A stretch of DNA of 64,000 nucleotides from an uncultured Chloroflexia bacterium (GTDB lineage: Bacteria > Chloroflexota > Dehalococcoidia > DSTF01 > JALHUB01). Positions 58,938 through 64,000 of the stretch are shown here, piece after piece. The stretch is from assembly GCA_963703345.1 (NCBI GenBank), contig OY969814.1, forward strand, positions 96,001 through 160,000, given 5' to 3'. The stretch's first letter is position 1, and the number at the start of each line of letters is the position of its first letter. The notes under the pieces were generated by a model. It made no database searches. It saw only the letters and a list, made by a program, of their open reading frames with translations, and was not told the DNA's origin. A program made the position numbers and the translations under genes.

Positions 58938-60344
58938 ATGGGCATGAGTGCAAATAGGGCGAAAACACTGGGAGAGTTGCGCGACTCCGGCTATCGCGTG
59001 AAGCCGGTGCGAGAAGAGATTCGCGACAACCTCATCCGCAAGATACGCAGCCGGCAGCCGCTGTTTCCCGGCGTAATCGGCTTCGAGGAGAGCGTCCTGC
59101 CGCAACTGGAGAACGCCATCCTGTCCGGACAGGACGTCATTCTCCTCGGCGAGAGAGGCCAGGCCAAATCCCGCCTCATCCGCCAGTTGGCGACGTTGCT
59201 TGACGAGGCCGTGCCCGCCGTCGCCGGCTGCGAGATCAACGATGATCCGTTCGCTCCCATTTGTCGCGCCTGCCGCGATCGGGCAAGCGAGGGAGGCGAC
59301 GACCTGCCGATAGCCTGGCTGTCGCCCGAGGAACGCTACGGAGAGAAGCTGGCGACGCCGGATATCACCATCGCCGATCTCATCGGCGAGATCGATCCGA
59401 TCAAGGTCGCTGAGGGCCGCTATCTTTCGGACGAACTGACCATTCACTACGGTCTCATACCACGTAGCAACCGCGGTATCTTCTCAATCAACGAGTTGCC
59501 GGACCTGGCCGAGCGCATCCAGGTGGGCCTTCTCAACATCATGGAGGAGCGCGATATTCAGATCCGCGGCTATCGCGTCCGCCTCCCGCTAGACGTCTTC
59601 ATCGTCGCCAGCGCCAATCCGGAGGACTACACGAACCGCGGGCGCATCATTACGCCGCTCAAGGACCGCTTCGGCGCGCAGATACGCACCCACTATCCGC
59701 GGACTGTGGACGATGAGATAAGCGTCATGGAGCAGGAGGCGCGTCCTCTTCCCAAAGAAGCGAAGGACGTGTTCGTGCCTCAGTACATGAAAGAGATCGT
59801 GGCCGAGATCACCCGCCTGGCGCGTCGCAGCCCCGACGTTAACCAACGCTCCGGCGTGTCGGTGCGCGCGTCGATCACCGACTACGAGACTCTTCTCTCC
59901 AACGCCCTGCGGCGGGCAATTCGCCTCAATGAGGAAGAGGTCGTGCCACGCATAAGCGATCTGTACTACCTGACGCCGGCCCTCAGCGGCAAGATCGAGT
60001 TCGAGACGCTGGATGAGGGCCGCGAAGAGCAGATCCTCGAAAGGCTCATCGCCGCCGGCGTGCTTTCCGTCTTCAACCGCTACTTCAATCTGGATGATCT
60101 CGACGAAACCGTGGCGGGCTTCAAAGCCGGCCTCGTTGTGGAAGCGTCAGACCTGGCGCCGGCGGAGAGCTACGTCGCGCTGCTGCAGATGGTGCCCGGC
60201 CTGGAGCGTGGTGTCGCGCACCTGAAAGTCGGCGAAAGGCCGGCGGCCGTCGCCTCCGCCGTCGAATTCGTCCTCGAAGGGCTTCACCTCAACAAGCGCC
60301 TCAACAAAGACAGAGTGTCCCGCCGCGTGCACTACCGAGGCTAA
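58938..60344 (+). CDS. ChlI/magnesium-chelatase-like AAA+ ATPase
   Basis: GERGQAKS Walker A, INELPDL, SANPEDYTNRG, LKDRF. Confidence 0.88.
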   Translation: MGMSANRAKTLGELRDSGYRVKPVREEIRDNLIRKIRSRQPLFPGVIGFEESVLPQLENAILSGQDVILLGERGQAKSRLIRQLATLLDEAVPAVAGCEINDDPFAPICRACRDRASEGGDDLPIAWLSPEERYGEKLATPDITIADLIGEIDPIKVAEGRYLSDELTIHYGLIPRSNRGIFSINELPDLAERIQVGLLNIMEERDIQIRGYRVRLPLDVFIVASANPEDYTNRGRIITPLKDRFGAQIRTHYPRTVDDEISVMEQEARPLPKEAKDVFVPQYMKEIVAEITRLARRSPDVNQRSGVSVRASITDYETLLSNALRRAIRLNEEEVVPRISDLYYLTPALSGKIEFETLDEGREEQILERLIAAGVLSVFNRYFNLDDLDETVAGFKAGLVVEASDLAPAESYVALLQMVPGLERGVAHLKVGERPAAVASAVEFVLEGLHLNKRLNKDRVSRRVHYRG

Positions 60345-60347
60345 GAC

Positions 60348-62414
60348 ATGCAGCGATACCGCTACTCCAAATGGAGCGGAAGCCAGGATTCTCCGTCCCT
60401 CGACGCCGATGACCTGCTTCGCGGCCTGACGGACGATCTGCTTAGCTTCGGCGATCTCCCACACGCCCTTCGCGGGCTGCTCCAACGCGGCCTCCAGAAC
60501 CAGCAGGGGCAGCGCTTCGCCGGCCTCCGCGAGTTGCTGAGGCGGCTCCGCCAGCATCGGCGGCAGCTACTCGAACGCTACGACCTGACATCGGTGATGG
60601 AGGACATTCGCCAGCGCGTCGACGAGGTCTTGCGCATGGAAAAGAGCACGCTGCGACGCCGTCTGGACGAGGCGCAGATCGGCTTCGAGACGCAGACCGC
60701 GCCTGACGAAGCCGCCGCTGAAGCAGTCGAAGGGCACGAGGAGGAACCGGAGCAGCAGTTCGCGGCCATGCTCAAGAGCATCATCGAACGCAAGCAAGAA
60801 TACCTGAAGCGCCTGCCGACTGACGTCGGCGGCCAGGTGAAGGGCCTTCAAGACTATGAGTTTATCGATCCGGAGGCGCAGAACAAGTTCCAGGAACTGC
60901 TGGAGATGCTCCGGAAAGCGATGCTCAACTCCTTCTTCAAGGAGTTGCACCGTCGCATCTCCGACATGTCGCCGGAGCAGATGGCGCGCCTGAAGGAGAT
61001 GGTGAAAGACTTGAACCGGATGCTCTCGGAGAAGGTGGCCGGCGAAGAGCCCAACTTCGACGAGTTCATGAGCAAGCACGGCGATCTTTTCGGCCCGCAG
61101 CCGCCGCGGAACCTTGAAGAGCTGATCGCCCAGATGCAGCAGCAGATCGGCCAGATGACGGCCGTGCTCGACAGCCTGCCGCCGGATCTGCGTTCGCAGC
61201 TCCACGACCTGCTGAGCGAGAAGAACGCCGACCCGGAGCTGGCCGACGAGCTGAACGAGCTCGCCGCCGGCTTAGAGCTGCTCTACCCGATGAACCTCCT
61301 GCGCAGCCGCTACTCGTTCCGCGGCGACGAAGGGCTGGACATTACTGAAGCAATGCGCCTCATGGACCACATGCAAGACCTCGACGGTCTGGAGAATCAG
61401 TTGGAGCGCGTAGAGCAAGGGGGTGACATCACCGAAATAGACCCCGAGAGGGTCGAGCGGCTGCTCGGGGCGGACGCGAAGGAATCGTTCGAGCAGCTAC
61501 GGCGCTTCCTGGAGGTGCTGGAACAGGAGGGATACATCCGTCGCAAGGGACGGGGCTGGGAGTTGACGCCCCGTGCGATCCGCAAGATCGGCGAGAAAGC
61601 GCTCGAGGAGGTCTACGCGCGCATTCGGGCGGGCCGCGCCGGCCGGCACTTGACGCGCGATGTCGGCCTCATCGGAGACCGCGCCGACGAAACGAAGCGG
61701 TACGAGTTCGGCGACCCGATGCATCTTCACCTTCAGCAGACGATCATGAACTCGCTGCAAAGGGAGCCGTCGTTCGGGCCGCCGGTCCGGTTGGAGGAAG
61801 ACGACTTCGAAGTCTACCGGAGCGAGCTGCTGTCGCAAACGGCGACGGTGGTGCTGGTCGACCTCTCTTGGTCGATGGCGCTGCGCGGGAGCTTCCAGGC
61901 AGCAAAGAAGGTGGCGCTGGCGCTGAACAGCTTGATAAGCAGCAAGTTCGCCCGCGACTCGCTCTATATCGTCGGTTTCTCCGCTTATGCCCGCGAAGTC
62001 AAGCCGCAGGAGTTGCCGTACCTGAACTGGGACGAGTCAGTCTTGGGCACGAACATGCACCACGCGCTAATCATCGCGCAGAGATTGCTGGCGAAACACA
62101 AAGTCGGCACGCGCCAGATAATCATGATCTCCGACGGCGAGCCGACGGCCCACCTGGAGCGCGGACGCTCGCTTTTCGCCTATCCGCCGAGCGCCGCCAC
62201 AATCCGCGAGACGCTACGTGAGGTGAAACGTTGCACCGATAGCGGCACAGTCATTAACACCTTCATGCTAGACCGCAACTACCAGTTGAATGACTTCGTC
62301 GACAAGATGGCGAAGATCAACAAGGGGCGCATCTTCTACACGACGCCGGAGCGTCTGGGCGAGTACGTGCTGGTGGACTACGTGTCGCGCAAGCGGAAGC
62401 GCGTGCGCTCCTGA
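60348..62414 (+). CDS. coiled-coil plus VWA domain protein
   Basis: MIDAS DLSWS...GTN...SDGE; YRYSKW N-terminus; long helical region. Confidence 0.88.
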   Translation: MQRYRYSKWSGSQDSPSLDADDLLRGLTDDLLSFGDLPHALRGLLQRGLQNQQGQRFAGLRELLRRLRQHRRQLLERYDLTSVMEDIRQRVDEVLRMEKSTLRRRLDEAQIGFETQTAPDEAAAEAVEGHEEEPEQQFAAMLKSIIERKQEYLKRLPTDVGGQVKGLQDYEFIDPEAQNKFQELLEMLRKAMLNSFFKELHRRISDMSPEQMARLKEMVKDLNRMLSEKVAGEEPNFDEFMSKHGDLFGPQPPRNLEELIAQMQQQIGQMTAVLDSLPPDLRSQLHDLLSEKNADPELADELNELAAGLELLYPMNLLRSRYSFRGDEGLDITEAMRLMDHMQDLDGLENQLERVEQGGDITEIDPERVERLLGADAKESFEQLRRFLEVLEQEGYIRRKGRGWELTPRAIRKIGEKALEEVYARIRAGRAGRHLTRDVGLIGDRADETKRYEFGDPMHLHLQQTIMNSLQREPSFGPPVRLEEDDFEVYRSELLSQTATVVLVDLSWSMALRGSFQAAKKVALALNSLISSKFARDSLYIVGFSAYAREVKPQELPYLNWDESVLGTNMHHALIIAQRLLAKHKVGTRQIIMISDGEPTAHLERGRSLFAYPPSAATIRETLREVKRCTDSGTVINTFMLDRNYQLNDFVDKMAKINKGRIFYTTPERLGEYVLVDYVSRKRKRVRS

Positions 62415-62432: not shown

Positions 62433-62750
62433 TCAGCGCTCCGATGATTCGTCTAGCCAGGGCAACGCCGCGCCGGGCACCAAACCGAAGCGCGCCCACA
62501 TCTTCAACGTCTCTCGCAACTCTTGCAGACGTTCCGGGTCGGCCTTCAGATCCTTCAAGAGGCACTTCTCGATGTGCGTCTCCATGAGCATCAGCCCAAC
62601 CTGGTCGAGTCCGGCCCGCACGGCCATCAACTGCGTCAGCATCTGCTCACAGGCGCGGTCCTCCTCCACCATGCGCTGAATGCCCCTGATCTGCCCTTCC
62701 AGGCGCCTAAGCCGGACGACCGCGTCTGAAGGTTGAAGTTTCGTGTTCAT
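62433..62750 (-). CDS. csoR: CsoR/RcnR family metal-sensing repressor
   Basis: RLRRLEGQIRGIQRM, C in RACEQ, H and C in THIEKC. Confidence 0.9.
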   Translation of the reverse strand: MNTKLQPSDAVVRLRRLEGQIRGIQRMVEEDRACEQMLTQLMAVRAGLDQVGLMLMETHIEKCLLKDLKADPERLQELRETLKMWARFGLVPGAALPWLDESSER

Positions 62751-62798
62751 GTCGCGCCTCACAGGCATTATACTGAACTCGTAGGCACTTGCTCTCTT

Positions 62799-62821
62799 GA
62801 CATACCCTAGGGGGGTATGTC
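62799..62821. promoter_or_regulatory. CsoR-type operator within trxA promoter (-35 TTGACA 62797-62802, -10 CACAAT 62821-62826)
   Basis: GACATACCC-TAGGG-GGGTATGTC, 9-bp inverted repeat with the TAC/C-tract/G-tract/GTA layout of CsoR sites. Confidence 0.85.
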
Positions 62822-62880
62822 ACAATTATCGCGAAGAGAAGCCGAGATGTCAAGCCGCTTCGAGATCGAGGAGGAATGAG

Positions 62881-63207
62881 ATGGCAAGCGTAAGAGACGT
62901 TACGGACGCGACGTTCAACAAAGAAGTGCTCAAGTCCAGCCTGCCGGTGCTGGTTGATTTCTGGGCGCCGTGGTGCGGCCCCTGTCGAATGGTCTCGCCG
63001 CTGGTTGAAGAGCTGGCAGGTGATTTCGCCGGAAAGGTGGACTTCGTAAAGTTGAACACGGACGAAAGCCCAGCGACGGCCACGAACTACGGCATCCGCA
63101 GCATCCCGACGCTGATCATCTTCAAGGCGGGTCAGCCGGTCAGCCAGGTGATAGGCTTCCGCCCCAAGGCCGAGCTCAAGAAGCATATCGAGAGCGCTAT
63201 CAGCTAA
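62881..63207 (+). CDS. trxA: thioredoxin
   Basis: DFWAPWCGPC, IRSIPTL; GAGGAGG RBS. Confidence 0.97.
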   Translation: MASVRDVTDATFNKEVLKSSLPVLVDFWAPWCGPCRMVSPLVEELAGDFAGKVDFVKLNTDESPATATNYGIRSIPTLIIFKAGQPVSQVIGFRPKAELKKHIESAIS

Positions 63208-63243
63208 GGGACTCTCTTGCTGCCCGCTGATCCACCGAGGCGC

Positions 63244-64000
63244 ATGGACTGCGACATCGTGATCGTCGGCGCCGGGCCGGCAGGTCTCACCGCTGGTCTG
63301 TATGCCGCGCGCGCCCGTCGCTGCACGGTGCTGCTCGAAAAGAACGTTGTCGGTGGACAGATTGCGCTTACGGCGATGGTCGAGAACTATCCCGGCTTCC
63401 CGGACGGGATCAATGGATACGACCTGTCGCAGGCGATGCTTAAGCAGGGCGAAAAGTACGGTCTAATGCCGCTTTACGTCGCTGCGCACTCTGTCGAACG
63501 GGCGGATGATCACTTCCTCGTCAGGACGGGCGAAGGTGATCTTCTTACAAAGACGGTGATTGCAGCCGGAGGAGCCGGCTACCGGAGGTTAGGGGTTCCA
63601 GGCGAGGAACGGCTCACGGGACGCGGCGTATCCTACTGCGCCACCTGCGATGCAGCGCTCTTCCGCGAGCAGGAAGTGGCGGTGGTGGGCGGGGGTGACG
63701 CAGCTATGGACGAAGCCCTCTTTCTTAGTCGCTACGCCGCCAGGGTTCACGTTATCCACCGTCGCGATCAGCTTCGGGCAACGCCGGTGTTGCAGGAACG
63801 CGTCTTTGCCGAGCCGAAGATCGACTTCATGTGGAATACGGTGGTCACGGAAGTGCGCGGGGAGGAGATGGTGAGCGGCGTCGGGTTGCGCAGCTCGCTA
63901 AACGGCGAGGAATCGGCACTCGAGTTGAGTGGTCTTTTCGTCTTCGTGGGTCAGCAGCCAAACATCGACTATCTGGGAGGGCTGGCGGCGATGGACGAGA
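63244..64000 (+). CDS. trxB: thioredoxin reductase, 3' end outside window
   Basis: Manual translation: IVGAGPAGLTA, VENYPGF, GRGVSYCATCD, VVGGGD, HRR. Confidence 0.95.
   Translation, partial: MDCDIVIVGAGPAGLTAGLYAARARRCTVLLEKNVVGGQIALTAMVENYPGFPDGINGYDLSQAMLKQGEKYGLMPLYVAAHSVERADDHFLVRTGEGDLLTKTVIAAGGAGYRRLGVPGEERLTGRGVSYCATCDAALFREQEVAVVGGGDAAMDEALFLSRYAARVHVIHRRDQLRATPVLQERVFAEPKIDFMWNTVVTEVRGEEMVSGVGLRSSLNGEESALELSGLFVFVGQQPNIDYLGGLAAMDE

Follow-up and report, generated by a model that had tools for sequence, protein, structure and literature searches.

Among described systems, the Cu(I)-sensing CsoR proteins of the B. subtilis, Geobacillus and S. lividans type (SSN cluster 1, x-C-H-C; 4m1p, 4adz) share with the repressor considered here, which we call the trx-linked CsoR, the PF02583 fold, the Cys-His-Cys residues and a Glu at the B position, and their type of operator (TAC-G/C tract-GTA) is also shown by the candidate site at trxA. 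Unlike them, the trx-linked CsoR has no Tyr before its first Cys, stands at trxA-trxB instead of copZA and coexists with a true csoR-copA pair that has another operator. In copper sensors the Tyr and the His cage the first Cys, the Tyr helping to lower its reactivity (PMC8643695), and the presence of this second-shell Tyr seems to be a predictor of Cu(I) selectivity; its change to Phe in M. tuberculosis CsoR lowers coupling only, by about one third (PMC4235346).

Several other sensors invite comparison. The CstR/YrkD proteins of S. aureus, E. faecalis and S. pneumoniae (SPD_0073, 7mq1-3; PMC8643695) share the dithiol pair and a similar loop, likewise have no Tyr ahead of their first Cys, and, like the trx-linked CsoR, they coexist with a copper CsoR without sharing its operator. 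However, CstRs are His-less (x-C-x-C, with an Asn wedge) and control rhodanese, CoAP, TauE and PDO genes, whereas the trx-linked CsoR has kept its His and has the cytoplasmic thioredoxin system as its predicted target; thioredoxin goes unmentioned in the text of that paper and in the part of its supplement covered. TTHA1953 of Thermus thermophilus (PMC10318464), which we liken to our protein by description, is also a CsoR-family paralog with two Cys that stands beside a true CsoR; it loses DNA on oxidation by H2O2 or Cu(II) and represses the thioredoxin-like SoxW, but its operator, TACNNTAC-N4-GTANNGTA, has no long G/C tract and its regulon is that of Sox. InrS of Synechocystis (5fmn; PMC4235346) resembles the trx-linked CsoR in having Cys-His-Cys and the B-position Glu without the A-position Tyr, and differs in its N-terminal His residues, its C-position Glu and its target, a nickel exporter. 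The functional analogue is RexT of Nostoc PCC 7120 (ArsR-SmtB; PMC8960804), a repressor of trxA2 from a metal-sensor family that is released by a disulfide and reset by thioredoxin, albeit with an unrelated winged-helix fold and an intramolecular vicinal disulfide. No paper describing regulation of trxA-trxB by a CsoR turned up in the open full-text literature searched, and PMC3519856, PMC4531530, PMC8756737 and PMC7918482 proved unrelated. According to a 2024 review, a CsoR-family sensor specific for H2O2 has yet to be characterised, which limits the understanding of inducer specificity (PMC11672702).

Organization of the csoR-trxA-trxB locus

The window, that is, the whole stretch of 64,000 nucleotides that was analysed, has at its 3′ end a vWA gene (60348-62414, + strand), csoR (62433-62750, − strand, convergent with the vWA gene), an intergenic region of 130 nt, and trxA and trxB, both on the + strand. 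Hereafter G000 is the window's own genome, and G-, L- and P-numbers denote genomes, loci and proteins, respectively. The csoR product, a CsoR/RcnR-family repressor of 105 aa, matches PF02583 in a profile search with 86.8 bits (E=1.3e-24, cut-off 22.8); an alternative in-frame ATG is found at 62768, and the alignment of the relatives begins at the ATG at 62750. Preceded by a Shine-Dalgarno sequence, GAGGAGG (62868-62874, + strand), that is purine-rich among relatives, trxA (62881-63207) encodes a thioredoxin of 108 aa with the WCGPC motif (TIGR01068, 131 bits, cut-off 96.8). The thioredoxin reductase gene trxB (5′ part at 63244-64000, with CATC at 63637-63648; TIGR01292, 362 bits, cut-off 343) extends beyond the window by 182 nt, to genome position 160182, and has a full product of 312 aa. 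These are the sole canonical thioredoxin and thioredoxin reductase genes found in the genome. On the other side of csoR, an AAA+ ATPase gene (MoxR/ChlI-like) and the vWA gene form a pair (58938-62414) that converges on it, an adjacency seen only in several close relatives.

The earlier note, made from the letters of the sequence, had read csoR as divergent from trxA-trxB, which the profile matches and coordinates confirm, and had advised inspecting the genes after trxB, where copA or copZ in the same operon would make this an ordinary copper regulon. Both were looked for among the following genes and neither was found, so the counter-case that the note had envisaged does not apply. What follows trxB are genes for an M28 peptidase, a CMD/peroxidase-related protein, PAP2, TauE, MBL, VKOR and DsbA-like proteins, and these non-copper genes, from the M28 peptidase onward, rule out an ordinary copper operon. 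Just beyond the window (G000:C1:162136-170839, L444) lies a redox-type gene cluster without the operator, with CMD/peroxidase-related, TauE, MBL fold, VKOR, DsbA-like, radical SAM and NifX-like genes and MinD-like ATPases.

Control region and candidate operator

A promoter scan gave two sigma-70-like sites, with 0.1 expected in shuffles, and the two predicted promoters face each other. That of trxA-trxB (62797-62826, + strand) consists of TTGACA (62797), an 18-nt spacer and TG-n-CACAAT (CACAAT at 62821-62826), and that of csoR (62825-62853, − strand) of TTGACA (62853), 17 nt and GATAAT (62825). The palindrome GACATACCC-N5-GGGTATGTC (62799-62821) lies inside the trxA promoter between the two boxes; besides filling this spacer it overlaps the predicted csoR start, near 62818, at the edge of the candidate operator core, ATACCC-N5-GGGTAT with its G/C tracts (62802-62818, no strand assigned).

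How much weight can such a palindrome bear? Perfect palindromes of equal size (9-bp arms, 5 nt) number 46 in the genome, so symmetry alone proves little and it is conservation that carries weight. The sequence itself is unique in the genome, the next best carrying four mismatches. Among 36 syntenic relatives the core, TTGACATACCC-N5-GGGTAT, is kept in 34, whereas the full 9-bp arms are found in five; the −35 TTGAC of the trxA promoter is present in all 36, the A and the T of its −10 in 33 each, and the opposing csoR −35 (GTCAA) in 35. The palindrome that the earlier note described as filling the trxA spacer is therefore present, but its outer GAC/GTC arms are not its conserved part and its left arm coincides with the −35 box; the opposing csoR promoter was absent from that note, as was the loss of the second-shell Tyr described below. 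As for the genome-wide scan that it proposed, a matrix built from the relatives gives a single strong site in G000, at 24.7 bits, the next, at 13.6 bits, lying within a coding region, and no second strong site pointing to a wider regulon was found by this matrix scan of G000.

Co-loss of csoR and its candidate site

Every PF02583 match was surveyed in G000 and 40 relatives of the same order, and csoR is divergent from trxA in 36 of these 41 genomes, a synteny that bears out the layout seen in the window. A trxA orthologue was sought with our own query in G004, G024 and G025 (82-96% complete) and none was found. G019 and G023 have trxA-trxB and the copper CsoR but are missing the trx-linked csoR; in both, the operator has decayed while the −35 persists, and G019 retains a 26-codon csoR remnant. 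These two genomes belong to one family and hence represent one event. The co-loss of site and gene is the best evidence, from genome comparison, that the trx-linked CsoR probably reads the candidate site.

Could the site instead be read by the copper CsoR beside copA, or by no protein, with the neighbouring csoR merely syntenic? In favor of this explanation, copA-linked CsoRs of other lineages use the motif, a generic CsoR site, but we consider the idea scarcely credible because the site has decayed in the two genomes that lack the trx-linked csoR yet keep the copper CsoR, and because the copper operators of the order are 4 bp longer than the trx-type site. The longer G/C operator (17-18 nt) is found at 30 of the order's 36 copA-linked csoR genes and the trx-type site at none of them, and with the trx matrix the copA-side operator of G000 (at ~413860-413885) reaches 0.6 bits vs 24.7 for the trxA site.

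The trx-linked CsoR and the separate copper sensor

When aligned to GtCsoR, InrS and SpCstR, the trx-linked CsoR has no residue at W, Cys34 at X, His59 at Y, Cys63 at Z, Ala33 at A, Glu77 at B and Arg74 at C. The codons for Ala33 and Cys34, where by sequence and column tallies Ala occupies the position of the copper sensors' second-shell Tyr and Cys34 is the first sensing Cys, lie at 62649-62654, and those for His59 to Cys63 at 62562-62576, both on the − strand. The C-terminus is a WARFG tail typical of the group, and the predicted structure has three helices (7-29, 34-64, 72-88; pLDDT 86). All top rows of a Foldseek search with this model belong to the CsoR family but are weak (E ~1e-3, none at E<=0.001); sequence matches in the PDB are all CsoR, InrS, CstR or FrmR, with InrS second-best, and the best match by both sequence and fold is the copper CsoR 4m1p. 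Among trx-linked CsoRs of other loci, L171 (G037), L172 (G021), L170 (G040, cut off by a contig end) and L364 carry an in-frame, HTH-like insert of ~40 residues (LGISRQRV-type) in the loop that immediately precedes the first sensing Cys, and the sister proteins L166, L167 and L169 have a shorter insert of 10-11 residues there.

The genome has a second CsoR gene (G000 413915-414181) directly 5′ of the copper P-type ATPase gene copA, and its product has the full copper-sensing set of Tyr-Cys, His, Cys and Glu. Because this protein adjoins copA, the trx-linked CsoR is likely not the cell's copper sensor. Residues were tallied over 197 distinct sequences of the family, each labelled trxA-linked if trxA lay no more than 600 nt away and copA-linked if copA lay no more than 1800 nt away; the sequences are related and do not represent independent events. 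Tyr precedes the first Cys in 0/53 trxA-linked vs 85/86 copA-linked proteins, Glu stands at the B position in 28/53 vs 85/86 and His at the Y position in 40/53 vs 85/86, and all 53 trxA-linked proteins have both Cys. Within the divergent group His59 is kept in 36/36 same-order members and then in 19/19 and 35/36 divergent members, down to ~45% identity, counts that, like our other conservation counts, come from genomes related to one another and so lack independence.

To which described class, then, does the protein belong? The x-C-H-C first shell of Cu(I)-CsoR is there in Cys34, His59 and Cys63, so the Cys-His-Cys that the earlier note took for a copper ligand set is complete, but the second-shell Tyr, on which the note did not remark, is replaced by Ala33. 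The second-shell Glu is present as Glu77, in a loop that aligns with gaps and in a position that varies among the trxA-linked proteins, and copA/copZ are neither adjacent nor under the operator, copA owning another CsoR. The two conserved Cys of CstR are found, but His59, which CstRs lack, is kept throughout the divergent group, and sulfide/sulfite detoxification targets are missing, the single operator in G000 leaving its rhodaneses and tauE without one. FrmR proteins have Pro2, no Z-position Cys and frmA as their target; our protein starts Met-Asn, has Cys63 and scores 35 bits against the FrmR profile NF008464 (cut-off 133). As for InrS, NcrB and RcnR, a Ni(II) or Co(II) sensor of the InrS/NcrB kind would fit the His/Glu-without-Tyr pattern shared with InrS and the rank of InrS among the PDB matches. 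We regard such a sensor as very improbable here, given that there is no His before residue 59 to serve as the N-terminal W ligand, that Arg74 replaces the acidic C-position residue, Glu in InrS, and that the conserved target is trxA-trxB, not a Ni/Co exporter. The trx-linked protein is thus a member of the CsoR superfamily that departs in defining features from Cu-CsoR (Tyr, target), CstR (His, target), InrS/RcnR and FrmR.

Distribution and phylogeny

In the class, the promoter-operator motif occurs in 27 of 151 genomes, and 19 of the 20 motif loci examined from its other families have the divergent csoR-trxA layout. Metagenomes were scanned by the DNA motif alone, and among the 80 loci analysed, of at least 120, 36 have csoR divergent from trxA, two have a co-directional csoR-trxA-trxB with a His-less CsoR (L300, L347), and in 11 the motif precedes or flanks copA. 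From these last we conclude that the motif is a generic CsoR site, and that, since it is also found at copA elsewhere, the site itself is uninformative on the inducer. Across the phylum the core is present in 103 of 301 genomes vs ~22 for a reversed control. Seventy phylum sites were analysed (30 automatic and 40 hand-chosen, mostly for their G/C tracts), of which 12, in family f32, lie in front of a trxA-csoR operon encoding a CsoR with Tyr replacing His, a replacement also seen in the CsoR of L056. The His-less trxA-linked members comprise 13 with Tyr, three with Gln (L202, L214, L362), and also L300 and L347.

A quick tree of 195 rows, from which two partial rows were left out, placed the trx-linked CsoR away from the copper clades in a group of 43 rows (SH-aLRT 98) that includes His-less members adjoining thioredoxin-fold, peroxiredoxin or DsrE genes. 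In a careful tree of 58 hand-picked rows the matching group had 49% bootstrap, falling to 29% once the His-less f32 group was added, so a single origin of the His-less and His-containing trx-linked proteins is unsupported, and joining the trx-linked group with the copper clade of its own genome was not rejected by an AU test (p=0.18). The CstR/YrkD references fall together on a starred branch that excludes the trx-linked CsoR. In both trees, plasmid and Bacillota sequences labelled by their gene context stood in for the characterised proteins SaCstR, InrS, MtCsoR and TTHA1953. In the SSN supplement of PMC8643695, the Dehalococcoidia rows among the first 30 of 121 places are in cluster 19, where either paralog is possible.

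Some relatives deserve separate mention. The His-less L215 (G242), L217 (G048), L230 (G055), L202 (G077) and L214 (G052) share the operator, and have as neighbours mvhD/DsrE genes, a peroxiredoxin with a formate dehydrogenase-like gene, a TlpA-like gene with a methyltransferase, or a methyltransferase with trxA. L036 (3935-4839), from a Clostridiaceae MAG (G343), has a co-directional csoR-trxA whose CsoR has Cys-His-Cys with Asn where Tyr is expected, and a second, Tyr-containing CsoR at copA; this csoR-trxA is possibly an independent recruitment. Tandem two-domain CsoR proteins of 170-240 aa were also found (P0005, P0006, P0012, P0013, P0022, P0029, P0040, P0049, P0060), several with Cys pairs and without Tyr or His. 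Finally, CsoR paralogs nested among copA-linked ones, mostly from Rokubacteria/Methylomirabilota (L050, L055, L062, L073, L079, L081, L084, L086), have Ser or Asp for Tyr, with copA absent from the locus.

What does the trx-linked CsoR sense?

Synteny, operator conservation and co-loss support a distinct CsoR subclass that is tied to trxA-trxB and predicted to regulate it, rather than an ordinary copper regulon. The earlier note had suggested a subclass coupling copper or thiol/persulfide stress to the thioredoxin system; its tie to trxA-trxB has held, while the copper alternative is weakened by the missing Tyr. The odds are shifted towards thiol oxidation, with a metal still in play, by three things taken together: the missing Tyr, a copper sensor elsewhere in the genome that has an operator of another kind, and the His-less trxA-linked relatives.

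We therefore favor, at a probability of roughly 55%, a thiol-oxidation-released repressor of trxA-trxB that is subject to feedback by thioredoxin, a reading whose steps are modelled on CstR, TTHA1953 and RexT. The reduced CsoR tetramer would bind the palindrome and block RNA polymerase at trxA-trxB and at its own promoter. Stress from disulfides, peroxide or sulfane sulfur may crosslink Cys34 of one subunit to Cys63′ of its neighbour through a disulfide or polysulfide, and the oxidised CsoR would then leave the DNA, switching on thioredoxin and thioredoxin reductase, which in turn would re-reduce it and so close the loop. For His59 a role in spacing or tuning is conceivable, or else in a secondary response to soft metals.

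Against the thiol reading count the strong retention of His59 in the divergent group, which fits a metal ligand, the presence of Glu77 and the best match being a copper CsoR. The retained His, within an intact Cys-His-Cys, and Glu77 also favor a second-tier sensor of Cu(I) or another soft metal (Ag, Au, Hg, Cd, Zn) that would bind through Cys34, His59 and Cys63 with weaker coupling than the copA-linked paralog and induce thioredoxin once export is overwhelmed and thiols come under attack. In such a sensor the Tyr loss would merely tune coupling: InrS, which also lacks the Tyr, is released by Cu(I) and answers Zn(II) in vitro (PMC4235346). The AU test, too, permits union with the genome's copper clade. 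Yet Tyr is missing from every trxA-linked protein tallied and Glu is variable among them, His-less members occur, the genome has a dedicated copper sensor with its own operator, and no metal exporter or chaperone stands under the one operator of G000, nor copA at the 20 further loci described in the next section. Because the His is so strongly conserved, we give the second-tier sensor a real share of the probability, but we judge it unlikely.

Whichever signal proves correct, the genome offers a natural comparison within a single cell: its two CsoR paralogs have the Cys-His-Cys site in common but differ in operator, in target and at the second-shell Tyr. The means by which a dithiol CsoR distinguishes copper from oxidants thus becomes directly testable. 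The locus also points to a candidate regulator of thiol homeostasis for a class that is widespread and mostly uncultured.

Candidate sites at other genes in relatives

Further strong sites occur in seven relatives, and 20 such loci were analysed, among which a search for copA gave no match. Most of these sites stand before uncharacterised genes. Three kinds of target count for the thiol reading: a cysteine desulfurase in two genomes (G028, G031), with the site over the −10; ccdA-tlpA, at one locus and with one mismatch; and a glutaredoxin-TrxB fusion, which follows a small CxxC ORF. The other targets are DUF3179 (two), HtrA or MMPL, operons for uncharacterised membrane proteins (five), a metallo-beta-lactamase-fold gene, one unknown, and a Met-rich membrane protein (L282) that could be copper-related; there are in addition one separate CsoR-rhodanese locus and three doubtful sites. 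From operator spacing only, we infer which paralog would read each of them.

The cysteine desulfurase sites also bear on the proposal of a CstR-like sensor specific for persulfides or polysulfides, with thioredoxin acting as the system that removes persulfide. It would agree with the two conserved Cys, the absence of Tyr, an R-x-C-x-(E/D) loop like that of S. pneumoniae CstR and the DsrE-type gene divergent from the relative L215. We think it distinctly improbable all the same: CstRs are defined by a missing His and by sulfide-detoxification neighbours, whereas the His is kept here, the rhodanese genes and tauE of G000 lack the operator, and the CstR/YrkD references keep to their own branch.

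At its broadest, the thiol reading would make the trx-linked CsoR a master thiol-redox regulator in a large part of Dehalococcoidia and the first member of the CsoR family to sense ROS or disulfides on behalf of the core thioredoxin system, a complete Cys-His-Cys copper site having become an oxidant switch through the loss of one Tyr. The family would have been recruited to trxA-trxB several times, in the group of G000 and in other Chloroflexota, and in some lineages its regulon would extend to cysteine desulfurase, CcdA-TlpA and Grx-TrxB. This full account we put forward tentatively, as one that is somewhat more apt to fail than to hold.

A separate class of promoters in the relatives has a GATCAC/GTCAC element, presumably akin to a CRP/FNR half-site, ~40 nt upstream of a CsoR-type site (L267, L270, L271, L273-L277 and L279-L281, in G026, G028, G029, G031, G034, G035 and G038). 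These promoters stand before small CxxC ORFs or Pfam-less membrane-protein operons, and at L273 a CRP-family gene is divergent at a promoter of this type.
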